A stretch of DNA of 46,724 bases. It comes from a virus (Duplodnaviria; Heunggongvirae; Uroviricota; Caudoviricetes). The notes below the pieces were generated by a model that did no database searches, was not told where the DNA came from, and saw only the letters and a program-made list of their open reading frames with translations. The stretch is taken from IMG/VR virus record IMGVR_UViG_2579778634_000020. One strand, given 5' to 3'. How positions within the stretch are numbered: the stretch's first letter is position 1; each line of letters opens with the position of its first letter. A program made the translations under genes and the position numbers. Positions 1-46,724 of this stretch are shown here, one piece after another.

Positions 1-7
1 CACTAAC

Positions 8-32
8 GCCCGCACATTGCTGCGGGCTTTTT
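8..32 (+). terminator. Rho-independent terminator hairpin (gcccgca..tgcgggc + TTTTT) closing a plus-strand transcript entering from the left of the window
   Basis: Seen in sequence: 7-bp GC stem with a 6-nt loop, followed by a T5 run on the plus strand. Confidence 0.6.
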
Positions 33-326
33 GATTCATTTCGCAAATGTGCTGACATTTTCCCCTCTAATCCGTACCATACACGCCACAGTTTTTTATA
101 TCAGATTTCTTATGCTGGGCGTTCCGGCATGACGCATACTCTTCTGATGCCATATAACGAATTGAGTCGCTTTTAATGTCGCAAAATCAAGAAATTAGTA
201 AGAAAGAACAATACAACCTGAACAAGTAAGGGCAAAAATCACAACCATCTGACACATAAAGATTTTATTTATTTTTCAAAACGTTAAACAATATCAGCGA
301 CTACAATAACCTACGATAACCCACTC

Positions 327-380
327 TTTTTTTGCCCCATTTTTGCCCCTTTTGCAGCGTTTTGCCCCATTTTTGCCACC
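327..380. repeat. Direct repeats of tttgccccatttttgcc (two copies at 331-347 and 361-377) in non-coding DNA downstream of the tail-fiber module
   Basis: Seen in sequence. The position suggests a prophage-end, att-arm or other protein-binding repeat; its function is unknown. Confidence 0.4.
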
Positions 381-552
381 ACAAAAAATCCTAAACCACA
401 CAAATCTAAAACCTACAAATTGCCCCCTTGGATACTTTTCAATAGAATCTGTTCCGGCTGGAAATCATTCAATACTCGCACTATCGAAAGTTATCCAGCC
501 AACCGCAGCACGTCCTGCATACGTCGTGTCTGCGGTTTTTCTTTTTCGCTTA

Positions 553-732
553 CATTGTGTCTGGTTCTTCCGGCCACTCAATATCAGGTGCAGTTGATGT
601 ATCAACACGGTTCAACAACACCCGATACTTTTTCCATGCGGCCAGTAACGCTTTCTCTTCCTCCGTTGCGATTTCCAGCTCAACAACAGTCTGAACGTAC
701 CGGGAACAGCCTCCTTCAGAGCTTGAAGGATA
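553..732 (-). pseudogene. tfa: Remnant of a tail fiber assembly (Tfa) gene: C-terminal 60 codons only, in frame directly after the stf TGA stop and lacking a start codon
   Basis: Translation ends ...[43 protein letters not shown]. This matches the conserved C-terminus of lambdoid Tfa proteins (TfaE, TfaR, lambda Tfa). There is no ATG or RBS, and the fragment begins at the stf stop codon. Confidence 0.7.
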
Positions 733-3222
733 TCAATGTTCGCTTCCTGTTAACTGCCGGACAAGTGCAACCAGTTCGCTTACCTGATTTTCCAGAGTGC
801 TGATCCGGGTGTCTGCTGTTGCCAGATTTTCACGTAGCGTTGTGTTTTCCTCTTCCAGCGCGGTAACGCGATCATCTGTTTCACGGGCGACCTGAACAAG
901 TAAACCCGTCACGGCGGCGTAGTCAACATTAAGATAGCGCGTTTCTTCGCGTAGCTCGTTGCCGTCAACGGTCGGACCTTGTAACGCTTCACCGTAATGA
1001 GTAAACGATCCCACAGCTTCCGGTAGCGCCTCCATTACCTCCTGAGCGATAACGCCAGCGTAAGGTAGTCCGTTTTCCTTAAGGGTATAAGTGTACCCGT
1101 TCATTTTGCGGATGGCTTCAGTTGCATCACCTATAACCTGAATGTTGTCCTTCAGATCACGATCAGATGATTGGTTTATCGTTTCGCATGTAATGTGACC
1201 AGACGCTTTAAGATTTTTTACATCAAGTCTGTCGTTTGCAAAATTATATGAAATTGCGGTGCTGGTGCTTCCGGCATCATCATAATCGCTTTTATGAATA
1301 AACCAGTTTCCACCATTAGCAATGAGAGTATAAGTAGGCGTGTTAGCCGGGCGATCTGTTTCATTAAATCTTATTGCTGGGTTAGCGCTCCTTATTTGTA
1401 AAGGTTTTTCAACCGTGGATTTCAGTATCGCACTATCTACAATTAAATTACCTTCTGAGTTAATGTTTAGATATTTTGAAGCACCAGTTGAACCATCGTA
1501 TGTAAACCTTATTGTTAATTGACCTGGCTCATTTGATAAAGTCTCAACATACATATCAGCACCAAGACGCACAGTGCTGTCAGTTGCTAACAGTCTTGTA
1601 TGGAGAATACCACTAGATGTGTATGTATTGGTCGAATCACTATATCTATCAAGAAATAGACTGTTAAGTTGAGGGCTATTGCTCCTGCCTAATCCAAGAT
1701 TCGTTCTGGCACCATCAATAGTTGCCGCACCAGTACCTCCGGCCGCGATCGAAAGCGGAATCCATTCGCTATTCTCTGCATCGTAATAACCCCATGTTCC
1801 TGAATCGTAGATACTAAAAAATTTGCTTGCATTTTGACAATATACGCGTGTATTACCTGTTAGTTGAGTAAGCCTGTCCACTTCATCTTTTCTTGCGTGA
1901 CGCGTCCACTGCGGGCCTATTGTCGGATTCCAGCGATAAGTATAAAGCGAGCGCGTAGCCCATCCCTGAAATACACCTGTATACGCTGGTGTTCCATCTA
2001 CCTGACTAATAAACCCCGTAAGACTGCTTTCACCGGATGCAATCGATGGAAAGCCTTTTGCATTACTCATAATGCGCATAAATCCGATATACCCTGATGG
2101 GTTGCCGGAAATATCAGGACAATCACGCGGGGCTGAGCCAAGACCGATATTATCGCCAACAATTACTTGCGCCTGGTTGCGATAATTAAGTGCGTCCGCT
2201 GCAGATTTCGCCGCGTTTGTTTCACTGGATTTAGCATTAGTTTCGCTGGCTTTAGCGTTTGTTTCGCTGCTCTTTGCTGCTGCCTCGCTATTTTTCGCGT
2301 TGGTTTCTGATTTTTTGGCTGCTGTCGCGGAGTTTGCCGATGCAGTTTGTGAGGCCGCTGCCGCCTGTGCGCTGTTATCCGCATTCGTCTCAGACGTTTT
2401 TGCGGCCTTCGCGGAATTTCCTGCCGCCGTTGCCGAGGAAGCTGCACTACTGGCACTTGATGATGCGTTCGTTTCTGATGATTTCGCTGCCTCTTTTGAG
2501 GCCGCCGCATCCCGGGCTGAGGTGGCAGCTTCTGACGCTTTCGTGGTCGCGGTGGATGCAGAAGTGGCTGCAGATTTTTGTGACGCTGCAGCATTCGTTT
2601 CTGACGTTTTCGCCGCACCGGCACTGGTAGCCGCCGCGCTTTTTGAGGACTCTGCAGCGGCAGCACTTTTTGATGCTTCAGTAGCCTTTGTTGATGCCGT
2701 TCCTGCGCTGGAAGACGCTGACTGAGCCGACGTCGCGGCCTGCCCGGCTGATGTGCTGGCTGCACGTGCTGAGCCTGCAGCATCAGTCGCATGGGTTGCC
2801 GCCTCACGGGCTGATGTGCCGGCATCGCTGGCTGACTTCTTCGCGGCTGCCGTGTTCTGTTCCACTGCGGACGCGTTACGCGCCACCTCTTCCACCATCA
2901 GTTCAAAGCGGCGCAGTGCCTCCGGACGGGCATCATCCTCCGTCATGGCACCGAGAAAATCATTCAGTGTGCCCGGCTTTGAGTCCTCATATACGGTGAT
3001 AATCCCGGCGTGTGACGGCGGGAATCCCTCCACCAACAGACTGACGCTGTACTGACCATACTCGACGTCCATTGTGTAACGCCCGGCTTCATCCGGGTTT
3101 TCTGAGGCCACTGTGTTCACCACCACCGTGGTGCTGTTGCGCCTGGCCTTTAGCTGAATGGTGCAGTTTTGTATCGGCTTACCTGCGCCATCTTTCAGTA
3201 CACCTGAAATCCGTACTGCCAT
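733..3222 (-). CDS. stf: Side tail fiber protein. The N-terminus is near-identical to lambda Stf, followed by a long Ala/Ser/Thr-rich repeat region and a C-terminal peptidase S74 intramolecular-chaperone domain.
   Basis: N-terminus MAVRISGVLKDGAGKPIQNCTIQLKARRNSTTVVVNTVASENPDEAGRY... matches lambda Stf. The C-terminal ~130 aa (DLKDNIQVIGDATEAIRKMNGYTYTL...coiled coil) resemble the endosialidase/T5 pb1 intramolecular-chaperone domain. An RBS of GGGGGG lies upstream. Confidence 0.9.
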   Translation of the reverse strand: MAVRISGVLKDGAGKPIQNCTIQLKARRNSTTVVVNTVASENPDEAGRYTMDVEYGQYSVSLLVEGFPPSHAGIITVYEDSKPGTLNDFLGAMTEDDARPEALRRFELMVEEVARNASAVEQNTAAAKKSASDAGTSAREAATHATDAAGSARAASTSAGQAATSAQSASSSAGTASTKATEASKSAAAAESSKSAAATSAGAAKTSETNAAASQKSAATSASTATTKASEAATSARDAAASKEAAKSSETNASSSASSAASSATAAGNSAKAAKTSETNADNSAQAAAASQTASANSATAAKKSETNAKNSEAAAKSSETNAKASETNAKSSETNAAKSAADALNYRNQAQVIVGDNIGLGSAPRDCPDISGNPSGYIGFMRIMSNAKGFPSIASGESSLTGFISQVDGTPAYTGVFQGWATRSLYTYRWNPTIGPQWTRHARKDEVDRLTQLTGNTRVYCQNASKFFSIYDSGTWGYYDAENSEWIPLSIAAGGTGAATIDGARTNLGLGRSNSPQLNSLFLDRYSDSTNTYTSSGILHTRLLATDSTVRLGADMYVETLSNEPGQLTIRFTYDGSTGASKYLNINSEGNLIVDSAILKSTVEKPLQIRSANPAIRFNETDRPANTPTYTLIANGGNWFIHKSDYDDAGSTSTAISYNFANDRLDVKNLKASGHITCETINQSSDRDLKDNIQVIGDATEAIRKMNGYTYTLKENGLPYAGVIAQEVMEALPEAVGSFTHYGEALQGPTVDGNELREETRYLNVDYAAVTGLLVQVARETDDRVTALEEENTTLRENLATADTRISTLENQVSELVALVRQLTGSEH
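2160..2860. repeat. Imperfect tandem nucleotide repeats encoding the (S/T)AxxAAxSxxxA low-complexity segment of Stf
   Basis: Seen in sequence: repeated gcNgcNtcNgaNgcN units. This produces the spurious overlapping ORFs on both strands (2163..2825 and 2300..2725). Confidence 0.8.
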
Positions 3223-3233
3223 ATTCCCCCCAC

Positions 3234-3259
3234 AAAAAAGCCCGCCTGAACCGGCGGGC
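3234..3259 (-). terminator. Intrinsic terminator/attenuator between lom and stf (minus-strand RNA GCCCGCC-GGUUCA-GGCGGGC-UUUUUU)
   Basis: Seen in sequence: 7-bp GC-rich stem followed by a U6 run on the minus strand. Confidence 0.65.
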
Positions 3260-3286
3260 TGTCATAACACTGTGTTACCTGGCTAA

Positions 3287-3886
3287 TCAGAATTTATAAC
3301 CGACACCAACGATGAAACTGTTGGTACGCCAGTCACCGCTGCCGGAGCCTTCATAAGCGACGTCAACGGCCACGGATTCGGTCGGGTTAAACTGCACGCC
3401 AGCTCCCCACGCCAGAGACGTGTTGCTGTGGCGACCGTCATCACTTCCGGTCAGCACATCGTGCGTTTTCCCCTTGTTGTCAGTTACGCGGATATAATCC
3501 CCGGAGAAAGTCGACACACGGCTGTAAGCCATACCCGCCATCGCATACGCGCTGAACCATTCATTCACGCGCACAGACGGCCCCGCCATCACGCTGAACC
3601 AGCGATTACGCACGGAATCCTCATGCCAGCGGGTATCGCTGTAATGCGTTTTTTGCTCATCTTCAGCGTTGGCATAACTGAATGACGTAATCAGCCCCAG
3701 CGTGTCCGTAAACTCATAACGGTATTTCACGTTAATCCCGTTCAGATTATCGCTGCCGGGAGCGTTCGTACGGGCATGAAGATACCCTGCGCTCAGTGTG
3801 GCCTGCTGCTCAGACGCCCATGCAGGCGCACCGGATACGGCCAGACAGATGGCTGCGGACAAAATGGCTGCACAAACTTTACGCAT
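3287..3886 (-). CDS. lom: Outer membrane protein Lom (Ail/Lom/PagC/OmpX family beta-barrel)
   Basis: 199 aa with a signal peptide. Near-identical to lambda Lom (MRK..AAILSAAICLAVSGAPAWAS...VGVGYKF). Confidence 0.95.
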   Translation of the reverse strand: MRKVCAAILSAAICLAVSGAPAWASEQQATLSAGYLHARTNAPGSDNLNGINVKYRYEFTDTLGLITSFSYANAEDEQKTHYSDTRWHEDSVRNRWFSVMAGPSVRVNEWFSAYAMAGMAYSRVSTFSGDYIRVTDNKGKTHDVLTGSDDGRHSNTSLAWGAGVQFNPTESVAVDVAYEGSGSGDWRTNSFIVGVGYKF

Positions 3887-3910
3887 AATTACCTCTCGCT
3901 TTTCTGCAAT

Positions 3911-3934
3911 AAAAAAGGCGCCATTTCTGGCGCC
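3911..3934 (-). terminator. Hairpin + U6 (GGCGCC-AGAAAU-GGCGCC-UUUUUU) between J and lom; putative attenuator
   Basis: Seen in sequence. Confidence 0.5.
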
Positions 3935-3953
3935 CGTATATGGGTTATAAAAT

Positions 3954-6900
3954 TCAGCTGATACTGATGCCTGCGGTGGCTTTCTTCATCACCACAACCA
4001 GCAAATCGCTGATACTTGCTGTGGGATACCAGTCATTTACCAGCCATGCTGACACCGAAAACTCCAGCGTCGTGTGACCGTGACCGGCAGGCATATCAAT
4101 AACGCCACTGTAAATCAGCGTATTATCCAGCGCGGTACGGTTATAAATTTCAGCACCGTTTTTCCGCACTATCAGACGGCATGAGGAGTAAATATCAGTA
4201 TGCTCTCTCTCATGTTTAGCGCCGCTGAATGCCACCGCCGGAATAACAATCTGCCGGTCAAACGGCTGATCGTCATAAATCCTGACGGTAATGGTCCCTG
4301 ATGGCCACCGCTCCGGTGCCCGGGAGTCCCGCGGGAAAGCCTTACCCACTGTTTTGACAATATCGCCTTCAATCTGGTTGGCTGACAGTTTCCCTTTAAT
4401 CTGACAGTTCTCATTTATCGTAACGTTGTTGAGCGTCCCGGCGTTCGCATTCACACTGCCACTGATATCCGCATTTTTAGCGGTCAGCTTTCCGTCCGGT
4501 GTCAGGGAAAAGGCCGGAGGATTGCCGCCGCTGGTAATGGTGGGGGCCGTCAGGCGCTTCAGGAACACTTCATTCATGAATATCTGATCACCCTGACCAA
4601 CAAACATCGGTTTTGTGTTGCCATTCGCAGGATTAATCATCGCAATCCTGTCTGCCGCCAGCAGCACCTGACTCTGCATGCCGTCAGGGGTGTTCTCAAT
4701 ACCGGCACCAATACCCGCGATATAAAGGCGTCCGTCCTGCATCTGCTGCAGCTTCACAGCCCACATGCTGTTCAGGTTATTATTTGTATCAACCTGAACC
4801 TTCTGTATCTGCTGAATTGCAGCACTCTGGTCTTCCAGTTTCTTATTGACGGTCTGCGTGATTTCATTGCTGACATCCGTAATGGACGTCCTGATTTCAG
4901 CCAGGTCAGGCGCAAGCTGACCGTTATCAATCTGCGTCCACAGCTCCTGAGCCAGATGGGTTTTCCCTATCTCGCCTTTGAAAAAATCCAGATAACCGGA
5001 TGCATCATCACTCGGCTGACCAACAGCCTCCACGAATGCCGATTTGCCAACGGTGTTCACACTGCGGATATAAAAGTAATAATCATGGCCCGGTTTGATA
5101 TTGATACTGGCGGCTATCCAGTACAGCGCCGTACCAAGATAGCGTGCTGTGGTTTCAACCTGCCTGATATCCGCAATCCGCTTTTCCGAGAACCAGAACT
5201 CAAACTGTACCGTCGGATCATAAACCGCAAGATGCGGCGTGGCGGTTATCTGAAAATAGCCCGGTGTCAGCTCAATCCGAGACGGCGCTGCCGGTGCGGC
5301 AATCCGGAACGATACCGATGCCGGATCGCCCTGCTGTCCCCACGCATTTACCGCCCGGACTGTCAGCCTGTAGTTCCCCAGCGCCAGTTGCGTGAAGCGG
5401 TATGTAGTTTCCGTCGTCCGGGCCGTGCTGACCAGCCGCTCACTGCCGTCATCCGCTGCCACGGTCAGGCGAAGCATAAAGCTCACCCCCTTCACCACCT
5501 TCGGCGTGTCCCAGCGCGCCAGCACCTGATATTCCCCGCTGTCTGCGGTGACTTCGGCAGTCAGGTGCTGCACCGCTGGCGGCGTGACACCATTCACCGT
5601 GCCGCTCTGGTCGCCGTCAAAGTGCGCCCCGTTATCCACGATGGCCTCTTTTTCCGGCACATGCTGCACGGCGGTGATGGCATACGTGCCGTCGTCGTTC
5701 TCACGGATACTCACGCAGCGAAACAGTCGCTGGCGCAGCGTCGGCAGCTTCAGCCCCCATACGCTGTATTCAGCAACACCGTCAGGAACACGGCTCACTT
5801 TTACCTTCACGCCGTCGGTGGCGGACTGGACCTCCACGCTGACCGGATTGCCATTTCCGTCAACCAGGCTTATCAGCGTGGTACCGGAGGATGGCAGCGT
5901 GATTTCACGGTCGAGCGTCAGCGTCCGGGTCTGGCTGTTCACCGCCAGCACGCGCCCACCGGTGCTGATACCCGCATAGTCATCATCACAGATTTCAATG
6001 ACATCGCCCGGCACATGGCGAAGCCCTTCTGCGCCCACGCTGAAGTCCACGGTCTGCGTTTCCAGCAGTTCTGTTTTAATCAGCCACAGCCCGGCGCGGT
6101 GTGCCTGCCCCCGGCTGGTACAGCCAAAGGCATCCATCTTCGTGACATTACGACCATAACGGGCAATGGCCTGCGTATCTTCAACAAGCTCTGTCGCCGT
6201 CTCCCAGCCGTTGTCCGGGTCAATCCAGTTCACCTCAACGGCATTATGGCGGACCTTCAGGGCGCTGAAACTGTAGCGGAACGGCGCGCCATCATCCGGC
6301 ATCACCACATTACTGCGGTTATAGGTCCACACCTTATCCGACGGCCGGTCCTGCACGAACGTCAGCGTCTGCCCGTTCCATACCGGCATACAGCGCATCG
6401 CCGAGCAGAAATCACTGAGCACATCCCACGCCTTACGCTGTGTGGTCAGCCAGGCATTACAGGTGATGCGCGGCTCCGTGCCGCCAAAGCCGTCCGGCAC
6501 CGACTGGTCGCAGTACTGGCCGATGACATACAGCGCCCATTTATCCACATCCGCCGCACCAAGACGTTTCCCCATGCCGTAGCGCGGGTGGGTCAGCATA
6601 TCCCACAGACACCATGCCATGTTGTTGCTGTATGCTGGCTTAAACGTTCCGTCCCAGATACCGCTGTATTGCCGCGTCTGCGGGTTATAGTTCGACGGCA
6701 CCTGCAGAATGCGCCCGCGAAGATGATAATTACGGCTCACCTGCTGGCTGCCGAACTGCTCCGAGTCCACCTGTACGCCGACCAGTGCCGTGTTCGGGTA
6801 GCACTGTTTCACATCGATGATTTCGGTGTATGACGACCAGAGCGTTTTGTTCTGCAGCTGGTCTGTGGTGCTGTCCGGCGTCATCCTGCGCATCCGGATG

Positions 6901-7433
6901 TTGAACGGGCGCGGCGGCAGGTTACCCACCACCACCGAGGCCAGATACTGCGAGGTGGTTTTGCCCTTAATGGTGATGTCTTTTTCCGTCACCCAGCCAC
7001 CGTTACGTTGTATCTGAACCAGCAGGCGGACTTCCGACGGATTCCGGTCCCCCTTTGAGGTGGTTTCCACCAGTGCCTGCACACCGAAGGTAAAGCGCAG
7101 TCGGTCGATGTTTGCCGACGTGATGGCGCGGGTGATCGGCGTGTCGTATTTCACTTCCGTACCCAGCACCGTCTCGGAGCCGGAGGATTCAAATCCCTCC
7201 GGCGGAGTCTGCTCCTGCTCACCAGCCCGGAACACCACCGTGACACCGGCGATGTTGGTATTCCCCTCACTGTCCAGCACCGGCGTACTGTTCAGCAGCA
7301 CGCTTTTTAATCCATCCACCGGACCTTCAATCGGCCCTTCACTGATGGCATCAATCACACTCAGCAACTGCGTGGATTTCAGGTTGTCCTTCGCTTCACG
7401 CGGGGTATGCCCCTTACTGCTGCCTTTACCCAT
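3954..7433 (-). CDS. J: Tail tip host-specificity protein J (central tail fiber)
   Basis: 1159 aa, collinear with and highly similar to lambda gpJ ([26 protein letters not shown]...). The C-terminal receptor-binding region diverges from lambda. Confidence 0.95.
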
Positions 7434-7493
7434 TCGTCACGCTCCATAAACGACAAAACCGCCCGCAGGCGGTTTCACATAAAACGTTTTTCA

Positions 7494-8135
7494 TCAGCGA
7501 CCAATCACCACAACCTGACCACCATCACCTTCATCTGCTGTGCTGATCTCCTGAGATACCACCCGCGACCCCACACGCATTTCACCGTACAGAACGGGCA
7601 GGACATTGCCCTGGGCAACCATATTATCCAGTGAAGAAAAATAGGTGTTCTGTTTGCCGTTATCCGTTGTCTGTGTGCGGGGGGTTTTGGGTTTAGGGGC
7701 CAGCATCTGTGCAACACCGCCAAGCGTCATACTGGCACCGAGAGAAAACAGCAGATTACTCGCCATAATTCCTACCCCCGGCATCCATATAGCAACCGCC
7801 ATAACAGCCGCCCCCAGCACAGCCTGAAACACACCGCCACTTTTGGCTCCTGCCAGACGCGGCACGATATGGATCACAGCACCATTTGCCAGCGGTTCAT
7901 TAAGACGGGCTGATAATTCCGTTTCACCTGTATCACGCCCGGCAATGCGTATCTGATACCAGCCGTCGCTCAGCTTCTGACGAAACGCCGGGATCTGCAT
8001 GGCCAGCGCCCGGATGGCTTCAGCCCCCGTTTTTACACGAAGGTCGATGCGGCGGCCAAATCGTTGTAAATCCCCGTAAAGGCAGATGCGCGCCATGCCC
8101 GGTGACGCCAGAGGGAGTGTGTGCGTCGCTGCCAT
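7494..8135 (-). CDS. I: Tail assembly protein I
   Basis: 213 aa. Same position and overlap as lambda gpI, between K and J. Confidence 0.8.
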   Translation of the reverse strand: MAATHTLPLASPGMARICLYGDLQRFGRRIDLRVKTGAEAIRALAMQIPAFRQKLSDGWYQIRIAGRDTGETELSARLNEPLANGAVIHIVPRLAGAKSGGVFQAVLGAAVMAVAIWMPGVGIMASNLLFSLGASMTLGGVAQMLAPKPKTPRTQTTDNGKQNTYFSSLDNMVAQGNVLPVLYGEMRVGSRVVSQEISTADEGDGGQVVVIGR

Positions 8136-8776
8136 TTGTCGGTATACCTCTCTCGTTTGCTCAGTTGTTCAGGAATATGGTGCAGCAGCTCGCCATCACC
8201 ACAGTAAATGGCGGCATGATTCGGCACCGATGAACCAAAACAGCACAGCAGTACATCGCCCGGCTGCGCCGCTGACAACGGCACCTGATACAGCCCCGTT
8301 GCCTCCAGATTATCCAGATAGAGATTCTGGCCGTTACGCCACCAGCCATCCTCACGATGAAAATCCGGCATCTCAATCCCCGCCAGATGATAAGCATCCC
8401 GGAACAGCGTGTAACAGTCCGTCACCCCGTGCTCAAAGCGCCGCCCGGTGAGATGCGGCACACAGCGGAACTTATGAATCGCCCCCCGGCAGACCAGCCA
8501 CCACGGCAAATCACTCTGCACCTGCAGCCGCCGGTCAGCCTCACTCAGCCAGGGCAGACCACCGGGGTGGCTGTGGACCAGCGCCACAATCTCACCCTGC
8601 ATTTCTGCCCGCAGCCAGTCCTCCGGAGCCATCCGGAAATAATCCTCCGGCTCACCGGAAATATTCACGCAGGGATAATATCTTTCTCCCTCCGGCGTTC
8701 TCACCACGAAGCCGCACGACTCCGCTGGCGCACATCGCCGGGCGTGCGCCAGAATCGCTGATTCTGTCTCTGTCAT
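8033..8776 (-). CDS. K: Tail assembly protein K (MPN/JAB + NlpC/P60 domains)
   Basis: N-terminus MTETESAILAHARRCAPAESCGFVV... matches lambda gpK, with HSHP and Cys/His motifs. Overlaps I as in lambda. Confidence 0.85.
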   Translation of the reverse strand: MTETESAILAHARRCAPAESCGFVVRTPEGERYYPCVNISGEPEDYFRMAPEDWLRAEMQGEIVALVHSHPGGLPWLSEADRRLQVQSDLPWWLVCRGAIHKFRCVPHLTGRRFEHGVTDCYTLFRDAYHLAGIEMPDFHREDGWWRNGQNLYLDNLEATGLYQVPLSAAQPGDVLLCCFGSSVPNHAAIYCGDGELLHHIPEQLSKRERYTDKWQRRTHSLWRHRAWRASAFTGIYNDLAAASTFV

Positions 8777-8781
8777 GGGAT

Positions 8782-36936: not shown

Positions 36937-36942
36937 GGTCAG

Positions 36943-37731: not shown

Positions 37732-37808
37732 TTGTTTTCACCTTGTAACGCTCGCAGCGTTACATTTAACTGATACCGAACAAAACAGTTCGGTACGATT
37801 AATTTCAA

Positions 37809-38482: not shown

Positions 38483-38561
38483 ATCACCCTCACAATGTGA
38501 ACTTTGAGTACATGCTATAACAGAACTGACAGTACATTCAAGAGCGAATATCATTGAACTT
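38483..38561. promoter_or_regulatory. racR-ydaS divergent promoter/operator region
   Basis: 79-bp intergenic region between divergently transcribed repressor and cro-like genes. Confidence 0.6.
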
Positions 38562-38981
38562 ATGGTTCATGAAGATAAAGCGCGTAAAGAGTTCGCCAGT
38601 AGGCTTGCGCTAGCCTGTGAAAACGCTGGTTATGAACAACATGGAAGGCAGGCAGAAATTGCCCGTCGAATGAAATTAACACCAAAAGCGGTTAGCAAAT
38701 GGTTTAATGGTGAAACAATTCCTCGCCGAGAGAAATTAAGGGAATTAGCAACACTCATTGGAACAACACCAACCTATCTTTTGGGAGAGGATACAGAAGA
38801 AAGTGGACAGATACGTTTCTATCAGGAGTTAAATCCAAGACAAAAAATCATCATTGACCTTCTGGACGAGCTCCCTGACAGTGAGACAGATGAACTTTTA
38901 AAAACTCTTGAGGAGAAAAAACAGAAGTACAATGCAATTTACGAAGAGTTAGCACGAAAGAAAAAACAAAAAGCCTCTTAA
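38562..38981 (+). CDS. racR: Prophage repressor RacR-like (XRE-family HTH)
   Basis: 139 aa with N-terminal HTH (QAEIARRMKLTPKAVSKWFNGE). CI-position, divergent from ydaS. Confidence 0.75.
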   Translation: MVHEDKARKEFASRLALACENAGYEQHGRQAEIARRMKLTPKAVSKWFNGETIPRREKLRELATLIGTTPTYLLGEDTEESGQIRFYQELNPRQKIIIDLLDELPDSETDELLKTLEEKKQKYNAIYEELARKKKQKAS

Positions 38982-39268
38982 ACCAGCATAAATCCGGTAG
39001 CGTCCCCCTCCGGGTTTGTGCTTCACTTTATCCCGTCTCATTTTTTTATACATAAAATGTACTTAAAGTACTTTACAATGATGAACACAAAGTACATTAT
39101 ATACCTACCAACCCACCCCGCCCCACAGAACGCCGGGCAATACTTCGAGTTACCAGGCAGTGGTCAGGGGTTAAGTAGCCAGCCCGAGGCGTATGAACAT
39201 GACGGCGGGATTCAAATTTTGCAGTGCAGCAGTTAGTTCCGCCACCCGGCGTTAAGGGGATAGATAAG

Positions 39269-39403
39269 ATGGTGCATTACGAAGTAGTTCAGTATTTGAT
39301 GGATTGTTGCGGTATCACTTACAACCAGGCTGTGCAGGCTTTACGCAGCAACGACTGGGATCTCTGGCAGGCAGAAGTCGCTATACGTAGCAACAAGATG
39401 TGA
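39269..39403 (+). CDS. ydaG: Rac prophage small protein YdaG (44 aa)
   Basis: RBS AAGGGGA. MVHYEVVQYLMDCCGITYNQAVQALRSNDWDLWQAEVAIRSNKM. Confidence 0.7.
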   Translation: MVHYEVVQYLMDCCGITYNQAVQALRSNDWDLWQAEVAIRSNKM

Positions 39404-39413
39404 GATTCGCAAA

Positions 39414-39569
39414 ATGCAAAAAATCGACCTCGGCAACAACGAATCCCTGGTGTGCGGCGTGTTCCCCAACCAGGATGGAACGTTCACTGCCATGACGTAT
39501 ACCAAAAGCAAAACATTTAAAACCGAAACTGGTGCGCGCCGATGGTTGGAGAAGCACACAGTAAGCTAA
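39414..39569 (+). CDS. ydaF: Rac prophage small protein YdaF (51 aa)
   Basis: MQKIDLGNNESLVCGVFPNQDGTFTAMTYTKSKTFKTETGARRWLEKHTVS. Its end overlaps the sieB 3' end convergently. Confidence 0.7.
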   Translation: MQKIDLGNNESLVCGVFPNQDGTFTAMTYTKSKTFKTETGARRWLEKHTVS

Positions 39570-40054
39570 CGATTAAAACGTCTACTCCTGCTGTTCCAGA
39601 ATAACTTCATAAAATGGGAGTATTTTTCGGTGACGAGATAATAAGAACAGTTTGCGCTATCACTCTGATGTTGAATGATGCCCTTCCGTTCTAATTTTTT
39701 CATAACCGGGTTACGGCAAGGAGAAGTGATAATAAGATTTCCTGTTTTAAGGAAATCTTTAAATACAGCGATTTCTTTCTCAGATAAACGAAGCAATACT
39801 CGTTGCTCTGGTAGTAATGAATAATGCTTTTGAATATGTGCTCGCAATCTTGAGAAGGAAATGGCGACCACGAAAGAAAAGGCAAAAACGATAATCTGAA
39901 AGAGCCAAGGTATTTCAGTATAAGCATTGAATGCGACAGTAAACTCTTTCGGTATCAGCCAGAGAGTGAGACCAAAAATGATAATCGTATACATAAGTCT
40001 TTCGAGTGGCTCGTTAGCAAAAAGTTTCAACAATGGAGTAAATACATCCAACAT
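39566..40054 (-). CDS. sieB: Superinfection exclusion protein SieB (162 aa from MLDVFTPLLK). The ORF-track N-terminal extension to 40177 is not part of the gene.
   Basis: Essentially identical to K-12 Rac SieB as recalled. TM segments present. Confidence 0.9.
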   Translation of the reverse strand: MLDVFTPLLKLFANEPLERLMYTIIIFGLTLWLIPKEFTVAFNAYTEIPWLFQIIVFAFSFVVAISFSRLRAHIQKHYSLLPEQRVLLRLSEKEIAVFKDFLKTGNLIITSPCRNPVMKKLERKGIIQHQSDSANCSYYLVTEKYSHFMKLFWNSRSRRFNR

Positions 40055-40495
40055 ATCAATAACTCTCAACTGTAAGGGTATTGAAATGTTAACACAAGCT
40101 CTCGCTGTAGGGGTATAGCCGAGACCACCGAAGCCCGGAGGTGGTGAAATAAAACCGGGCACAACACGAAGGCGCATTTCCGATATCCATAAAGAGTCGG
40201 TCTTGTCTGTTAAATTTAAATGGTGGGAGTGCGCCTCCGGTTGTAAATAACGACATTGCTGTGTGTAGTCCTGGCGGCATCAGTTTTTTTCTTGAAGTTC
40301 GGCTGATGTCCGCCCTTTTTAAAGTGAATTTTGTGATGCGGTGAATGCGGCTAAGCGCACGTGGCACAGTTAAAAGTCATGTTAGTCCTTATTGGTTTGG
40401 GTGGGAAAGCCGACTGTAATTGTTAACTGGTTGCAGTCACCTGGAGGCACCAGGCACCGCATCAACAAAGTTCATTTGTAAAAATGGAGATAATT

Positions 40496-40717
40496 ATGAT
40501 TGCACATCACTTCGGAACTGATGAAATACCACGTCAGTGTGTGACTCCTGGCGATTATGTTCTTCATGAAGGCCGGACATATATTGCCTCGGCAAACAAT
40601 ATTAAAAAGCGAAAACTATATATTCGTAACCTGACCACAAAAACATGCATTACTGACCGCATGATTAAAGTCTTCCTCGGTCGTGATGGTTTACCTGTAA
40701 AGGCGGAGTCATGGTGA
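40496..40717 (+). CDS. kilR: Cell-division inhibitor KilR (FtsZ inhibitor)
   Basis: 73 aa [35 protein letters not shown]... matches Rac KilR. Confidence 0.9.
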
Positions 40718-40887
40718 TGACTAAGAAAATAAAATGTGCTTACCACCTTTGCAAAAAAGACGTTGAAGAAAGCAAAGCTATTGAAAGAATGCTTCACTTC
40801 ATGCACGGGATTTTATCAAAAGACGAACCGAGAAAATATTGCAGTGAAGCTTGTGCCGAAAAAGACCAGATGGCACATGAACTTTAA
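40717..40887 (+). CDS. ydaE: YdaE (56 aa, Cys-rich zinc-binding), overlapping the kilR stop
   Basis: [56 protein letters not shown]. Confidence 0.7.
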   Translation: MTKKIKCAYHLCKKDVEESKAIERMLHFMHGILSKDEPRKYCSEACAEKDQMAHEL

Positions 40888-40961
40888 TTAATTGACTATT
40901 CGAAACTGAATTTATGCCAGAAATGGCAGGTATTCGCTCAACCTTAATTAAGGAGAAAAAC

Positions 40962-41237
40962 ATGATTACCAATTATGAAGCCACTGTTGTAACTACCGAT
41001 GACATTGTTCACGAGGTGAATCTGGAAGGAAAGCGCATTGGCTACGTAATTAAAACAGAAAATAAAGAAACCCCATTCACTGTGGTTGATATCGATGGTC
41101 CATCAGGCAACGTAAAAACACTTGATGAAGGTGTCAAAAAAATGTGCCTGGTGCATATCGGAAAGAATCTGCCCACAGAAAAAAAAGCCGAATTTCTGGC
41201 AACTCTAATTGCAATGAAATTAAAAGGTGAAATCTGA
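40962..41237 (+). CDS. racC: RacC (91 aa; start MITNYE)
   Basis: Matches Rac RacC. Immediately upstream of recE. Confidence 0.85.
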   Translation: MITNYEATVVTTDDIVHEVNLEGKRIGYVIKTENKETPFTVVDIDGPSGNVKTLDEGVKKMCLVHIGKNLPTEKKAEFLATLIAMKLKGEI

Positions 41238-41338
41238 AAGAAATAGCCTGCGTATGGCGCAGGCTATGAACAGTGTGTATCCGGCAAGATCATTCACTGA
41301 ACAAAACGAATTTTAATCTGAGTTGAGGTTAAAAAACA

Positions 41339-43939
41339 ATGAGCACAAAACCACTCTTCCTGTTACGGAAAGCGAAAAAATCATCCGGTGAACCTGACGT
41401 CGTCCTGTGGGCAAGCAACGATTTTGAATCGACCTGTGCCACTCTGGACTACCTGATCGTTAAGTCAGGTAAAAAACTGAGCAGCTATTTTAAAGCTGTT
41501 GCCACGAATTTTCCTGTCGTTAATGACCTGCCCGCTGAAGGTGAGATCGATTTTACCTGGAGTGAACGCTATCAACTCAGCAAAGACTCCATGACATGGG
41601 AACTAAAACCGGGAGCAGCACCAGACAACGCTCACTATCAAGGCAATACCAACGTCAACGGCGAAGACATGACTGAGATTGAGGAGAATATGCTACTCCC
41701 AATTTCTGGCCAGGAACTGCCCATTCGTTGGCTTGCTCAACACGGCAGCGAAAAACCGGTAACGCACGTTTCACGCGACGGACTCCAGGCATTACACATT
41801 GCTCGGGCTGAAGAACTACCGGCTGTTACTGCCCTGGCTGTTTCCCACAAAACCAGCCTGCTCGACCCGCTGGAAATTCGCGAACTCCACAAACTGGTTC
41901 GTGACACTGACAAAGTTTTCCCTAATCCTGGTAATTCAAACCTGGGACTGATAACTGCTTTTTTCGAAGCATACCTGAACGCTGACTACACCGATCGAGG
42001 ACTGCTGACAAAAGAGTGGATGAAGGGTAATCGTGTTTCACACATCACTCGCACGGCTTCCGGTGCTAATGCTGGCGGCGGAAACCTCACCGATCGCGGC
42101 GAAGGTTTCGTACACGATCTGACGTCACTGGCGCGCGACGTAGCCACTGGCGTACTGGCCCGTTCAATGGATCTGGACATCTATAACCTTCATCCGGCAC
42201 ACGCTAAACGCATTGAGGAAATTATCGCTGAAAATAAACCGCCCTTTTCTGTTTTCCGCGACAAATTCATCACCATGCCTGGCGGGCTGGATTATTCCCG
42301 CGCCATCGTGGTTGCGTCCGTAAAAGAAGCACCAATTGGGATCGAGGTCATCCCCGCGCACGTCACTGAATATCTGAACAAAGTACTGACTGAAACCGAT
42401 CATGCCAACCCTGATCCGGAAATCGTGGATATTGCCTGCGGTCGCTCCTCTGCCCCGATGCCGCAGCGAGTAACAGAAGAAGGAAAACAGGATGATGAAG
42501 AAAAACCGCAACCATCTGGAACAACGGCAGTTGAACAGGGAGAGGCTGAAACAATGGAACCGGACGCAACTGAACATCATCAGGACACGCAGCCGCTGGA
42601 TGCTCAGTCACAGGTAAATTCTGTTGATGCGAAATATCAGGAACTGCGGGCAGAACTCCATGAAGCCCGGAAAAACATTCCATCAAAAAATCCTGTCGAT
42701 GCCGATAAATTGCTTGCTGCATCACGTGGTGAATTTGTTGACGGAATTAGCGACCCGAACGATCCGAAATGGGTAAAGGGGATCCAGACTCGCGATTGTG
42801 TGTACCAGAACCAGCCAGAAACGGAAAAAACCAGCCCGGATATGAATCAACCTGAGCCAGTAGTGCAACAGGAACCGGAAATAGCCTGCAATGCCTGCGG
42901 CCAGACTGGCGGGGATAACTGCCCTGACTGTGGTGCGGTGATGGGCGACGCAACATACCAGGAAACATTCGATGAAGAGAGTCAGGTTGAAGCTAAGGAA
43001 AATGATCCGGAGGAAATGGAAGGCGCTGAACATCCGCACAATGAGAATGCTGGCAGCGATCCGCATCGCGATTGCAGTGATGAAACTGGCGAAGTCGCAG
43101 ATCCCGTAATCGTAGAAGACATAGAGCCAGGTATTTATTACGGAATTTCGAATGAGAATTACCACGCGGGTCCCGGTGTCAGTAAGTCTCAGCTCGATGA
43201 CATTGCTGATACTCCGGCACTGTATTTGTGGCGTAAAAATGCCCCCGTGGACACCACAAAGACAAAAACGCTCGATTTAGGAACCGCTTTCCACTGCCGG
43301 GTACTTGAGCCGGAAGAATTCAGTAACCGCTTTATCGTAGCACCTGAATTTAACCGCCGGACAAACTCCGGAAAAGAAGAAGAGAAAGCGTTTCTGAGGG
43401 AATGCGCAAGCACAGGAAAAACGGTTATCACTGCCGAAGAAGGCCGGAAAATTGAACTCATGTATCAGAGCGTTATGGCTTTGCCGCTGGGGCAATGGCT
43501 TGTTAAAAGCGCCGGACACGCTGAATCATCAATTTACTGGGAAGATCCTGAAACAGCAATTTTGTGTCGGTGCCGTCCGGACAAAATTATCCCTGAATTT
43601 CACTGGATCATGGACGTGAAAACTACGGCGGATATTCAACGATTCAAAACCGCTTATTACGACTACCGCTATCACGTTCAGGATGCATTCTACAGTGACG
43701 GTTATGAAGCACAGTTTGGAGTGCAGCCAACTTTCGTTTTTCTGGTTGCCAGCACAACTATTGAATGCGGACGTTATCCGGTTGAAATTTTCATGATGGG
43801 CGAAGAAGCAAAACTGGCAGGTCAGCTGGAATATCACCGCAATCTGCGAACCCTGGCTGACTGCCTCAATACCGATGAATGGCCAGCTATTAAGACGTTA
43901 TCAGTGCCCCGCTGGGCTAAGGAATATGCAAATGACTAA
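41339..43939 (+). CDS. recE: Exodeoxyribonuclease VIII RecE (full-length 866 aa)
   Basis: 866 aa with an acidic low-complexity middle and a C-terminal nuclease domain (...[15 protein letters not shown]...). Stop overlaps the recT start. Confidence 0.95.
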
Positions 43940-44741
43940 GCAACCACCAATCGCAAAAGCCGATCTGCAAAAAACTCAGGGAAACCGTGCACCAGCAGCA
44001 ATTAAAAATAACGACGTGATTAGTTTTATTAACCAGCCATCAATGAAAGAGCAACTGGCAGCAGCTCTTCCACGCCATATGACGGCTGAACGTATGATCC
44101 GTATCGCCACCACAGAAATTCGTAAAGTTCCGGCGTTAGGAAACTGTGACACTATGAGTTTTGTCAGTGCAATCGTACAGTGTTCACAGCTCGGACTTGA
44201 GCCCGGTAGCGCCCTCGGTCATGCATATTTACTGCCTTTTGGTAATAAAAACGAAAAGAGCGGTAAAAAAAACGTTCAGCTAATCATTGGCTATCGCGGC
44301 ATGATTGATCTGGCTCGCCGTTCAGGTCAAATCGCCAGCTTGTCAGCCCGTGTTGTCCGTGAAGGTGACGAGTTTAATTTCGAATTTGGCCTTGATGAAA
44401 AGTTAATACACCGCCCAGGAGAAAACGAAGATGCCCCTGTTACCCACGTCTATGCTGTCGCAAGACTGAAAGACGGAGGTACTCAGTTTGAAGTTATGAC
44501 GCGCAAACAGATTGAGCTGGTGCGCAGCCAGAGTAAAGCTGGTAATAACGGGCCGTGGGTAACTCACTGGGAAGAAATGGCAAAGAAAACGGCTATTCGT
44601 CGCCTGTTCAAATATCTGCCCGTATCAATTGAGATCCAGCGTGCAGTATCAATGGATGAAAAGGAACCACTGACAATCGATCCTGCAGATTCCTCTGTAT
44701 TAACCGGGGAATACAGTGTAATCGATAATTCAGAGGAATAA
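43932..44741 (+). CDS. recT: Recombinase RecT (ssDNA annealing protein)
   Basis: 269 aa from [17 protein letters not shown]...; matches RecT. Confidence 0.95.
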
Positions 44742-44796
44742 TTCAGCCTGGCGGTGTAATGCACCGCCAACTTGAAATATTTTTATGAGAAAAATT

Positions 44797-44991
44797 ATGA
44801 GATATGACAATGTTAAACCATGTCCATTTTGTGGTTGTCCATCAGTAACGGTGAAAGACATTTCAGGATATTACCGGGCAAAATGCAACGGATGCGAATC
44901 CCGAACTGGCTATGGTGGAAGTGAAAAAGAAGCGCTCGAAAGATGGAATAAACGAACCACTGAAAATATTAATGGAGGCGTTCATGTATAA
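44797..44991 (+). CDS. ralR: RalR (Lar) restriction-alleviation protein / type I TA toxin (64 aa from MRYDNVKP)
   Basis: MRYDNVKPCPFCGCPSVTVKDISGYYRAKCNGCESRTGYGGSEKEALERWNKR... matches RalR. Confidence 0.9.
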   Translation: MRYDNVKPCPFCGCPSVTVKDISGYYRAKCNGCESRTGYGGSEKEALERWNKRTTENINGGVHV

Positions 44992-45172
44992 AATTACCGC
45001 TACAATTGAAAAGGAAGGTGGCACTCCTACTAACTGGACAAGATATTCAAAATCTAAACTAACGAAATCAGAATGCGAAAAAATGCTCTCAGGTAAAAAA
45101 GAAGCAGGCGTTTCCAGAGAGCAGAAAGTAAAACTGATAAATTTTAATTGCGAGAAACTTCAGTCCTCGTGA
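44972..45172 (+). CDS. ydaC: YdaC (DUF1187) small protein
   Basis: ...MYKITATIEKEGGTPTNWTRYSKSKLTKSECEKMLSGKKEAGVSREQKVKLINFN... The start codon is uncertain (44972 or 44984); the ORF-track start at 44912 overlaps ralR. Confidence 0.6.
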   Translation: MEAFMYKITATIEKEGGTPTNWTRYSKSKLTKSECEKMLSGKKEAGVSREQKVKLINFNCEKLQSS

Positions 45173-45271
45173 ATTGCATTGTATTCAAATTAAAACTTCA
45201 TAGCTGATTATTAATAATCAACATCAGGCGTCAATTTCAGTCTAACATTGGCGCCTGCCAGAGGTGATGCG

Positions 45272-45487
45272 ATGGCACAAGTAATCTTTAATGAAGAGTG
45301 GATGGTTGAATACGGCCTGATGCTTCGCACTGGTCTGGGGGCCAGACAAATTGAAGCATACCGCCAGAACTGTTGGGTGGAGGGCTTCCACTTCAAACGA
45401 GTATCTCCTTTAGGTAAGCCAGACAGCAAACGAGGGATTATCTGGTACAACTATCCAAAGATAAATCAGTTTATCAAAGACTCATGA
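45272..45487 (+). CDS. xisR: Excisionase (Rac XisR/YdaQ, 71 aa from [10 protein letters not shown])
   Basis: Matches YdaQ. Lies directly upstream of int with a 1-nt gap. Confidence 0.85.
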
Positions 45488-45488
45488 T

Positions 45489-46724
45489 ATGTCTAAATTA
45501 CCAACAGGTGTCGAGATTAGAGGTAGAAACATTCGCATCTGGTTCATGTTTCGAGGAAAACGATGTCGGGAAACATTAAAAGGCTGGGAGATTACAAACA
45601 GTAATATTAAAAAAGCCGGAAATTTAAGAGCGCTGATAGTTCATGAAATAAACTCCGGTGAATTTGAGTATTTAAGACGTTTTCCCCAGTCCAGCACTGG
45701 GGCAAAAATGGTGACAACGAGAGTCATAAAAACGTTCGGGGAGCTTTGTGATATCTGGACAAAAATTAAAGAGACAGAGTTAACAACAAACACAATGAAG
45801 AAAACGAAATCACAATTAAAAACACTCAGAATAATAATTTGTGAAAGTACCCCGATATCATATATTCGTTATAGCGATATCTTAAACTACCGGAATGAAC
45901 TGCTGCATGGAGAAACGCTTTACCTGGATAATCCAAGATCCAACAAAAAAGGAAGAACCGTGCGCACAGTTGATAACTATATCGCCCTGCTCTGTTCGCT
46001 GTTACGTTTTGCGTATCAGTCGGGATTTATATCAACCAAACCATTTGAAGGAGTAAAAAAATTACAGCGAAACAGAATAAAGCCTGACCCGTTATCTAAA
46101 ACAGAATTCAATGCATTAATGGAAAGTGAAAAAGGACAGAGCCAAAACTTGTGGAAATTTGCCGTTTACTCCGGGCTTCGTCACGGGGAACTGGCAGCTC
46201 TGGCGTGGGAGGATGTGGATTTCGAGAAGGGAATTGTGAATGTCAGAAGAAACCTGACGATACTTGATATGTTCGGTCCCCCAAAAACAAATGCCGGGAT
46301 CCGGACGGTAACATTACTACAGCCAGCTCTTGAAGCACTGAAGGAGCAATACAAACTGACCGGGCATCATCGCAAAAGCGAAATCACTTTTTATCATCGG
46401 GAGTACGGCAGAACCGAAAAGCAAAAACTGCATTTTGTTTTCATGCCCAGGATGTGTAACGGAAAACAGAAACCTTATTACTCGGTAAGCAGTTTGGGTG
46501 CGAGATGGAATGCAGCAGTAAAACGTGCTGGTATTCGCCGCCGTAATCCGTACCATACGCGACATACTTTTGCCTGCTGGCTGTTGACGGCAGGAGCGAA
46601 CCCGGCATTTATAGCCAGCCAGATGGGGCATGAAACTGCGCAGATGGTGTATGAAATTTACGGTATGTGGATTGATGACATGAACGACGAACAGGTAGCC
46701 ATGTTGAATGCGCGGTTATCATAG
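45489..46724 (+). CDS. intR: Tyrosine integrase IntR (phage integrase family). Its 3' end points to the prophage boundary just beyond the window.
   Basis: 411 aa, the same length as Rac IntR. C-terminal catalytic motifs R...HxxR...Y (NPYHTRHTFACWLLTAGANPAFIASQMGHETAQMVYEIY). Confidence 0.95.
   Translation: MSKLPTGVEIRGRNIRIWFMFRGKRCRETLKGWEITNSNIKKAGNLRALIVHEINSGEFEYLRRFPQSSTGAKMVTTRVIKTFGELCDIWTKIKETELTTNTMKKTKSQLKTLRIIICESTPISYIRYSDILNYRNELLHGETLYLDNPRSNKKGRTVRTVDNYIALLCSLLRFAYQSGFISTKPFEGVKKLQRNRIKPDPLSKTEFNALMESEKGQSQNLWKFAVYSGLRHGELAALAWEDVDFEKGIVNVRRNLTILDMFGPPKTNAGIRTVTLLQPALEALKEQYKLTGHHRKSEITFYHREYGRTEKQKLHFVFMPRMCNGKQKPYYSVSSLGARWNAAVKRAGIRRRNPYHTRHTFACWLLTAGANPAFIASQMGHETAQMVYEIYGMWIDDMNDEQVAMLNARLS

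Follow-up and report, generated by a model that had tools for sequence, protein, structure and literature searches.

Two prophages at ttcA have been described that bear on the element considered here. KingRac, a Rac-related prophage of 46,834 bp at ttcA of a mouse-gut Escherichia coli (Frazao et al. 2019, PMC6731689), is annotated as complete; mitomycin induces it weakly, tailed particles are made, and it lysogenizes K-12 in place of Rac, a replacement seen in the mouse gut (PMC6731689; PMC12251178); transfer of flanking chromosome has also been reported for it, from which its authors inferred transduction (PMC12251178). Sp10 of O157 Sakai, also at ttcA, has a repressor without a peptidase domain and is not induced by mitomycin; it excises spontaneously, is packaged, is transferred to K-12 and integrates there at the Rac attR, and its K-12 lysogens release no visible particles (PMC2669165). 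An imperfect att core of Rac has been described, and Liu et al. found the leftmost 8 kb of the Sp10/CP-933R prophages to be 99.0% identical to K-12 Rac (PMC4632033). Here we analyzed the viral record IMGVR_UViG_2579778634_000020, a stretch of 46,724 bases (the window) that starts one base past the uspF stop codon and ends on the stop codon of intR. With a probability of about 0.9, the window is one structurally complete prophage, lambdoid and temperate, that belongs to the Rac lineage and sits in the 5' end of ttcA.

Among the 55 translated genes of the window, 54 show no interruption, and their lengths match those of annotated homologues in two RefSeq genomes. Inspection of the open reading frames (ORFs) together with family searches assigns the uninterrupted genes to integration, immunity, replication, late antitermination, lysis, packaging, head, connectors and tail (Table 1). 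The initial annotation had regarded the structural genes as intact, and this was borne out: TerS, TerL, portal, MuF, scaffold, capsid, connectors and tail terminator, as well as tube, G/GT, tape measure, M, L, K, I, J, Lom and Stf, are all uninterrupted, fit their families and have RefSeq lengths, and ORF inspection revealed no frameshift or premature stop in the essential structural genes. For the G/GT chaperones, a slippery heptamer, A_AAA_AAG, lies at 13530-13524, two codons ahead of the ydaY stop codon, and the -1 frame is open into 13210-13443; the G/GT arrangement is therefore preserved, as had been proposed.

An imperfect att core of 43 bp at 183-225, the core known for Rac (PMC4632033), is 93% identical to the present K-12 ttcA 5' end (blastn) and also aligns with the intR-ttcA junction of NZ_CP136025.1 (strain GDSC2BY4G). 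The left boundary thus falls within positions 1-550, where it had been expected; positions 1-182 are host DNA and not prophage, and the match of the FDAARGOS_1058 genome to the window starts directly after the uspF stop codon. In the collinear genome the partner core is found about 59 bases past the intR stop codon. It would sit at about 46783-46825, just outside the window as anticipated, and the core-to-core length is therefore about 46.6 kb. Copies of a TTGCCCC(A/T)TT repeat flank the core on both sides, and NZ_CP136025.1 has two further copies (26990-27015) in the gap from the intR stop codon to the start of ttcA; the repeats are common to K-12 Rac up to window position 395 and are probably the IntR arm-type binding sites of attP. 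A tRNA scan of the window found none, so that integration is not at a tRNA site, and an Rfam scan at gathering thresholds returned RalA alone. In other Rac-type prophages the sitABCD iron/manganese transporter operon is cargo at the extreme right end, with the att arm repeats on one side and the tfa remnant on the other (NZ_CP065970.1 1120-4569, replacing window 382-456); the operon is absent from the window.

The window was compared with the Rac region of K-12 MG1655 (NC_000913.3, 1411899-1434958), by blastn for blocks and by tblastn (E<=1e-3) for proteins. The two align in collinear blocks with nucleotide identities of 92-99.9%, apart from a block of 84% at the tfaR 3' end. Three deletions separate the blocks in K-12 Rac. 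The first corresponds to window 3645-12109 (8,465 bp) and covers J, I, K, L, M and two thirds of the tape measure gene; the second, 13870-25429 (11,560 bp), extends from the tube through the terminase and the TAGT-like gene to the C-terminal part of the ParB-like gene; the third, 27861-35717 (7,857 bp), comprises endolysin, holin, Q and nin-like genes, cargo, DUF977 and the C-terminus of YdaW. Each of the chimeric K-12 ORFs (ynaA-lomR, ynaK-ydaY and ydaW-rzpR) is accounted for by a single deletion junction. By tblastn, residues 1-151 of K-12 YdaW map to window 36167-35715 and residues 150-186 to 27861-27751, residues 1-312 of K-12 YnaA are the N-terminus of the tape measure protein, and K-12 YnaK is the first 86 residues of the 263-amino-acid (aa) ParB-like protein. 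Microhomology at the three junctions is nowhere above 1-2 bases, and we therefore claim no deletion mechanism. The ynaK, ydaY, partial T and ynaA remnants are 99.8-99.9% identical to the window and stand in the same order, which argues that the K-12 ancestor carried the same head/tail module.

The statement that K-12 Rac has lost everything between trkG and the tail-fiber end is accordingly inexact: K-12 keeps ynaK, ydaY (G), part of T, 312 codons of the tape measure gene and lomR, and the losses are not confined to that side, as the Q/lysis block on the other side of trkG (27861-35717) is also gone. The reading of the window as a complete relative of K-12 Rac is borne out by the collinear K-12 remnants, whose identity reaches 99.8-99.9% in the blocks of structural genes and trkG. 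The word ancestor, also used in the initial annotation, is too strong; since the two elements have different immunity regions, YdaU N-termini, Stf tips and cargo, the window prophage is better described as a mosaic sibling. K-12 Rac differs further in carrying IS5 in lomR and another right end (stfR tip, tfaR, pinR, ynaE and ynaM); pinR, ynaE and ynaM are absent from the window, where tfaR is reduced to a remnant of 45 codons.

The initial annotation had also listed the K-12 accessory genes as present at essentially K-12 sequence. This holds for 15 proteins at 94-100% identity: IntR (98.8%), XisR (100%), RcbA (98.6%), RalR (95.3%), RecT (98.5%), RecE (99.0%), RacC (98.9%), YdaE (100%), KilR (98.6%), SieB (100%), YdaF (100%), YdaG (100%), YdaT (94.3%), YdaV (99.6%) and TrkG (100%). 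The early-left arm with recE-recT, ralR/RalA, rcbA, racC, ydaE, kilR and sieB is there in full at 95-100% identity, and the early-left accessory block (39224-41237) is as in K-12. The list does not hold for RacR and YdaS, which have no tblastn match in the window at the above threshold; the stretch 38238-39105 has no nucleotide match to K-12, and a DicA-like repressor gene and a Cro-like gene stand there. Nor is YdaU wholly of K-12 type, for it matches over residues 162-285 only (the C-terminal 124, at 81%), while the whole protein matches the replication-initiator family phrog_2509. Finally, rcbA (ydaC), also on the list, has a nonsense codon at position 63 (R63* vs K-12; window 45170-45172), just past the 5' end of the antisense RalA. 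The repressor and Cro-like genes diverge across an intergenic region of 80 bp, and the phage is probably heteroimmune to K-12 Rac, which has racR/ydaS immunity. AGTACAT repeats are present in this intergenic region and may be operators. On these sequence comparisons K-12 Rac is a decayed sibling of the window prophage, with three deletions, IS5, a different right end and a different immunity allele accounting for the differences.

Relatives of the window are frequent. At least 80% of window 1-24000 is found in one place in 676 of 5426 complete E. coli genomes (best identity 97.2%), and at least 80% of window 24001-46724 in 158 of them (best identity 99.3%; both by megablast). The matching region in those genomes sits between uspF/ompN and ttcA/dbpA, namely at the Rac locus. 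The sibling in NZ_CP136025.1, 99% identical to the window, has an IS3 in its Q-like DUF1133 gene (8837-10640) and an internal stop in intR (25751-26986), so that the lineage decays in place, as with K-12 Rac.

These data can be brought together in the following way. An IntR-type tyrosine recombinase has integrated the phage into the first codons of ttcA; the phage supplies a replacement ttcA 5' end just past the window, and the original 5' end is left stranded at 176-228. The gene order is lambdoid: int-xis, RecET with ralR/RalA, kilR and sieB, divergent repressor and Cro-like genes, YdaT, YdaU/YdaV and cargo; then nin-like and Q-like genes, holin, endolysin and Rz/Rz1, trkG, ParB-TAGT, TerS and TerL; and lastly portal, MuF, scaffold, P22-type capsid, connectors, tube, G/GT, tape measure, M-L-K-I-J, Lom and Stf. 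The phage is a mosaic, in which a non-lambda head and packaging module, probably of the headful type, is joined to a lambda-like tail tip, and three deletions, IS5 and module swaps turn such an architecture into K-12 Rac. Judged from this gene content, the window prophage should be able to excise, be packaged and lysogenize. A scan of the window for perfect LexA boxes found none, and a LexA-controlled antirepressor was dropped from consideration for this reason. As the repressor has no self-cleavage domain, spontaneous rather than strong SOS induction is probable, and by analogy we expect a prophage active at a low, mostly spontaneous rate. The published activity of KingRac and Sp10 at the same site supports, by analogy, the reading of the window as a potentially active prophage.

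Several points weigh against a complete and functional prophage. The nonsense codon in rcbA indicates some decay; ORF inspection is blind to missense or regulatory defects, and the expected excision, packaging and lysogenization are deduced from genes; as the repressor is without a peptidase domain and a perfect LexA box is lacking, induction by mitomycin in the classic way may be feeble or fail altogether. The second att site lies beyond the window end and is seen only in collinear genomes. None of the complete genomes searched matches the element at 99% identity or more over its full length, and the window prophage may thus not be identical with any tested phage, such as KingRac. The tfa remnant is less worrying, because Stf has an S74 chaperone domain of its own. 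Some of these points would suit a grounded prophage, in which the ORFs are kept, the lytic cycle is blocked by regulatory or missense defects, and the element is domesticated for its cargo (trkG, sieB, ralR/RalA, hok and the nuclease-methylase pair described below). The rcbA mutation, the repressor without peptidase domain and the lack of a LexA box are compatible with such a fate, the GDSC2BY4G relative with its IS3 and its intR stop shows that the lineage does decay in place, and the Sp10 lysogens of K-12 without visible particles (PMC2669165) could be seen in the same light. However, no essential gene class is interrupted or departs from the canonical length, the site for the programmed frameshift is kept, and KingRac, of equal size and at the same site, makes particles and spreads in vivo (PMC6731689). 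We therefore regard a grounded prophage as unlikely.

The uneven identity to K-12, 98.9-99.9% in some blocks and 92-94% in others, could also be produced if an unrelated lambdoid phage had recombined at ttcA, the site common to both, and so picked up the early-left arm of Rac; the replacement of the immunity region, YdaU N-terminus, Stf tip and cargo, and a Stf tip common to an N15-like plasmid-prophage, would follow easily from such a history. This origin is improbable, given that the structural remnants of K-12, outside that arm, are 99.8-99.9% identical to the window in the same order and that every chimeric K-12 ORF fits one deletion junction in the window architecture. Long repeats are shared by lambdoid prophages (each window half has a median of 4 matching places per genome), and an assembly might in principle have joined pieces of two or more of them. 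But the same order recurs in hundreds of closed genomes, among them single records with both halves back to back, for example LT838200 (2545953-2598862), and the window is collinear with NZ_CP136025.1 and two more loci bar known indels; an artefact is hardly credible. The structurally complete Rac-type prophage is thus the reading that we retain.

Intact Rac-like phages at ttcA abound in E. coli, and their activity has been established by experiment; the window prophage is an ordinary representative of this known kind. Its usefulness for showing what K-12 Rac has lost, pointed out in the initial annotation, is real yet already realized in the literature. It offers a clean template without insertion sequences from which the origin of K-12 Rac can be followed base by base through three deletions, one IS5 and module swaps, and with its help the odd K-12 genes ydaW, ynaK, ydaY and ynaA can be understood as chimeras made by deletion or as pieces of the genes for ParB, the G chaperone and the tape measure. 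Its value is therefore one of reference, annotation and teaching, with no new biology. Active Rac-like phages displace K-12 Rac and are a likely vehicle for transfer of the flanking chromosome. Only its nuclease-methylase cargo might merit more study.

Table 1. Features of the window, followed by the blocks aligned with K-12 Rac (coordinates are window positions)
Feature	Position	Strand	Basis or remark
Host DNA: uspF 3' flank, intrinsic-terminator-like hairpin (~5-33), original ttcA upstream region	1-175	+	near-identical to K-12 downstream of uspF
Stranded original ttcA 5' end, equivalent of K-12 ttcC, encoding MSQNQEISKKEQYNLNK*	176-228	+	blastn, K-12 ttcC annotation, collinear-genome junction
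TTGCCCC(A/T)TT repeat cluster: inverted copy 230-239; direct copies 332, 343, 362, 420	230-429		motif search
Tail-fibre assembly gene remnant, last 45 codons, 76% identical to TfaR	562-696	-	tblastn; homologous remnant annotated pseudogene in RefSeq genome
Side tail fibre Stf, 829 aa; prophage tail-fibre N-terminal domain, C-terminal S74 intramolecular chaperone (residues 686-737)	733-3222	-	Pfam
Lom	3287-3886	-	Pfam full-length, intact ORF, RefSeq length
J (six J-specific domains)	3954-7433	-	Pfam full-length, intact ORF, RefSeq length
I	7494-8135	-	Pfam full-length, intact ORF, RefSeq length
K	8033-8776	-	Pfam full-length, intact ORF, RefSeq length
L	8782-9480	-	Pfam full-length, intact ORF, RefSeq length
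M	9480-9818	-	Pfam full-length, intact ORF, RefSeq length
Tape measure, 1077 aa; first 312 codons = K-12 ynaA	9811-13044	-	Pfam, tblastn
GT extension ORF, 77 codons	13210-13443	-	reached by -1 frameshift
Tail assembly chaperone G (YdaY)	13518-13877	-	phrog_313; Phage_TAC_18 weak match
Tail tube (Phage_tube_2)	14028-14990	-	family search
Tail terminator	15017-15409	-	family search
Neck1/tail completion	15406-15786	-	family search
Head closure Hc1	15787-16170	-	family search
Head-tail adaptor Ad1	16170-16565	-	family search
58-aa protein	16569-16745	-	
P22-type major capsid protein	16788-17927	-	family search, P22 coat family
Scaffold-like DUF6651	18026-18790	-	family search
MuF-like minor head protein	18895-20010	-	family search
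DUF4055 portal	19991-21397	-	family search
TerL (Terminase_6N/6C, T4-type)	21400-22701	-	family search
TerS (Terminase_2)	22682-23776	-	family search
69-aa protein	23780-23989	-	
TAGT/GREB1-related glycosyltransferase, overlapping ParB_N-like gene	23967-24899	-	family search
ParB_N-like protein, 263 aa; first 86 codons = K-12 ynaK	24892-25683	-	family search, tblastn
trkG potassium transporter moron, 100% identical to K-12 TrkG	25821-27278	-	tblastn
Rz	27416-27880	-	family search, tblastn
Rz1/RzoR, embedded in Rz	27478-27660	-	tblastn
Endolysin	27877-28353	-	RefSeq calls homologue GH24 protein
Holin S	28357-28698	-	family search
Strong terminator-like hairpin, between Q-like gene and holin	28822-28801	-	
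189-aa protein	29046-29615	-	
Q-like DUF1133 antiterminator	29837-30499	-	family search
YbcO	30376-30666	-	family search
DUF1367	30666-31265	-	family search
Variable cargo slot, 34-39% GC	31626-34957	+	limits by comparison with vB_EcoS-666R9
hok	31731-31886	-	family search
OLD-family ABC ATPase-TOPRIM nuclease, 609 aa	32032-33861	+	Pfam, PADLOC, Foldseek
C5 cytosine methyltransferase (Dcm), directly after nuclease gene	33885-34925	+	family search
DUF977	34959-35405	-	family search
Full-length YdaW/DUF1627	35406-36218	-	family search, tblastn
YdaV, DnaC-like loader	36190-36936	-	tblastn, family search
YdaU-family initiator, non-K-12 N-terminus	36943-37731	-	tblastn, phrog
YdaT	37809-38231	-	tblastn, 94.3%
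Cro-like helix-turn-helix gene, unrelated to YdaS	38228-38482	-	family search
DicA-like helix-turn-helix repressor, 139 aa, without peptidase domain	38562-38981	+	family search
ydaG	39269-39403		tblastn
ydaF	39414-39569		tblastn
sieB	39566-40054	-	tblastn
kilR	40496-40717		tblastn
ydaE	40717-40887		tblastn
racC	40962-41237		tblastn
RecE	41339-43939	+	tblastn
RecT	43932-44741	+	tblastn
ralR toxin	44797-44991	+	tblastn
rcbA/ydaC, premature stop	44984-45193	+	tblastn
RalA antitoxin small RNA, 218 bits	44990-45168	-	Rfam
Excisionase XisR	45272-45487	+	tblastn, 100%
Tyrosine integrase IntR, 411 aa, intact	45489-46724	+	tblastn 98.8%, family search
K-12 block: uspF flank, ttcC, prophage end	1-395		94.7% (blastn)
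K-12 block: tfaR 3' end	572-695		84% (blastn)
K-12 block: stfR N-terminus and lomR	2381-3476		92.3% (blastn)
K-12 block: lomR	3471-3644		97.7% (blastn)
K-12 block: ynaA to ydaY	12110-13869		99.9% (blastn)
K-12 block: ynaK, trkG, rzpR/rzoR	25430-27860		99.8% (blastn)
K-12 block: ydaW, ydaV, part of ydaU	35718-37316		94.4% (blastn)
K-12 block: ydaT	37811-38237		92.5% (blastn)
K-12 block: ydaG to intR	39106-46724		98.9% (blastn)

The tail tip block (3287-9818, minus strand) is lambda-like. Compared with the 1091-aa allele of FDAARGOS_1058, the window Stf is without residues 680-932. That this reflects damage by an in-frame deletion was ruled out, as the Stf of another phage has the same contiguous junction at 100% identity: in the distal part of the fibre, a query of 401 bases across it matches without difference the Stf of an N15-like linear plasmid-prophage with protelomerase (NZ_LT906558 49190-52159). 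Prophages at several integration sites encode exactly this 829-aa Stf, on at least 23 contigs in all, and this sharing points to recent exchange of tail-fibre modules.

The head and packaging genes are P22/MuF/T4-terminase-like and not lambda-like, the resemblance to lambda being limited to the tail tip and the lysis genes. The terminase families suggest headful (pac) packaging, a mode that would be in keeping with the transduction of neighbouring chromosomal DNA ascribed to KingRac (PMC12251178). In GenBank phage records the homologue of the MuF-like protein is labelled 'NAD+--asparagine ADP-ribosyltransferase'; the only Pfam match is the MuF domain, at residues 154-275. Immediately ahead of the terminase genes come the overlapping genes for the ParB_N-like and TAGT-like proteins. 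In distant phage contigs the same overlapping pair is followed by terminase genes of three other families; the pair travels with many terminase types. The TAGT-like glycosyltransferase has more than 8,000 homologues, and a PDB sequence search with it gave no match. By analogy with the TET/TAGT hypermodification of phage DNA, the Dcm of the cargo slot was considered as its partner. This was ruled out, as the window holds no TET/JBP gene; in addition, the TAGT-like gene lies in the half common to at least 676 genomes and has its thousands of homologues, whereas Dcm is found in 32 genomes. In the lysis block, the endolysin has no Pfam or NCBIfam match, and from its translation we take it to be lambda R-like. 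The late-regulation and nin-like block spans 28801-31265 on the minus strand.

The variable cargo slot of the window is occupied by hok, a gene for a 609-aa protein and a C5 cytosine methyltransferase gene. The 609-aa protein has Pfam AAA_21 and AAA_15 ABC-ATPase matches. Invariant across 12 homologues are K60 and D310/E311 (Walker A/B), H344 (H-loop), E396/D397 of the TOPRIM domain and D451/D453 of a D451-x-D453 motif. Its AlphaFold model (mean pLDDT 77.6) has its best full-length Foldseek matches in the OLD protein of Thermus scotoductus (6P74) and Gabija GajA. On the grounds of its ABC-ATPase domains, invariant residues and Foldseek matches, we classify the protein by architecture as an OLD-family nuclease. 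The best PADLOC profiles were HEC-04 (1.7e-34), with an alignment confined to residues 232-459, and then ATPase-Toprim_I-B.

The exact nuclease-methylase pair occurs in 32 of the 5426 complete E. coli genomes. A C5 methylase gene lies immediately downstream in all four inspected neighbourhoods of homologues that are 38-67% identical, and among 65 full-length homologues (65 species, many phyla) 52 have a C5 methyltransferase homologue within 3 kb, upstream or downstream. The pairing is kept from Enterobacteria to Actinobacteria, Bacteroidota, Firmicutes and Cyanobacteria and, judged by this distribution, is ancient. A nuclease gene is thus linked with a DNA methyltransferase gene across unrelated genomes in variable order, a pattern seen in restriction-modification systems. 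We tentatively suggest, as a possibility to be held with reserve, that the pair might be an ATP-dependent system resembling restriction-modification, widespread and as yet without a name, in which the OLD-family protein would restrict and the C5 methylase would protect self DNA, defending the lysogen and stabilizing the prophage. PADLOC v2 has no dedicated model for the pair, and no description of it was found in the literature searched; it may be catalogued, for example in REBASE or in surveys of ABC ATPases. Should this be confirmed, restriction-modification would gain a new enzyme class, an OLD-family nuclease that habitually has a C5 methyltransferase as its partner.

The cargo protein shares with the OLD family (P2 Old, Thermus scotoductus OLD and GajA) the order of ABC ATPase followed by TOPRIM; its identity to the OLD and GajA proteins of known structure is below 15%. 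Its nearest characterized relatives, HEC-04 and IbfA, have been shown by experiment to defend as single proteins, each acting alone. Unlike Class 1 OLD, GajA, PARIS and HEC-04, the cargo family usually stands beside a C5 methyltransferase. For the phage as a whole, likeness to lambda is seen in M, L, K, I, J, Lom, the Stf N-terminus, the tape-measure domains, holin S, Rz and the frameshift logic of G/GT, and likeness to P22 in the coat protein, which matches the P22 coat family. In contrast to lambda, the window prophage has a DUF4055 portal, a MuF protein, a T4-type TerL, a Phage_tube_2 tube, RecET in place of Red, and YdaU/YdaV replication. Among the Rac-type relatives, vB_EcoS-666R9 is collinear with window 7874-31625 and 34958-46724 at 98.3-98.7%. 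It shares this architecture with vB_EcoS-673R7 and vB_EcoS-613R10; the three (ON470614 and others) are in-silico predictions from clinical isolates, truncated in the tail tip, and their cargo slot is filled by genes other than hok, the OLD-like nuclease and Dcm. Escherichia phage Rac-SA53 (KU052037) shares the early arm at about 91%, covering 34% of the early half. The likeness to KingRac, whose data are deposited as SRA BioProject PRJNA549246, rests on size (46,834 bp vs about 46.6 kb) and on the ttcA site, not on sequence. Sp10 and CP-933R (EDL933) resemble the window prophage, by their published descriptions, in the ttcA site, intact RecET-type recombination genes, a DnaC-type loader, conserved morphogenetic functions and a repressor without a peptidase domain, and both are described as excising spontaneously and being transferred to K-12 (PMC2669165; PMC4632033); beyond their leftmost 8 kb these prophages may differ from the window. 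Finally, K-12 Rac shares with the window prophage the insertion site in the ttcA 5' end, the att core, and the early arm, ydaT, ydaV and trkG at 94-100% protein identity.

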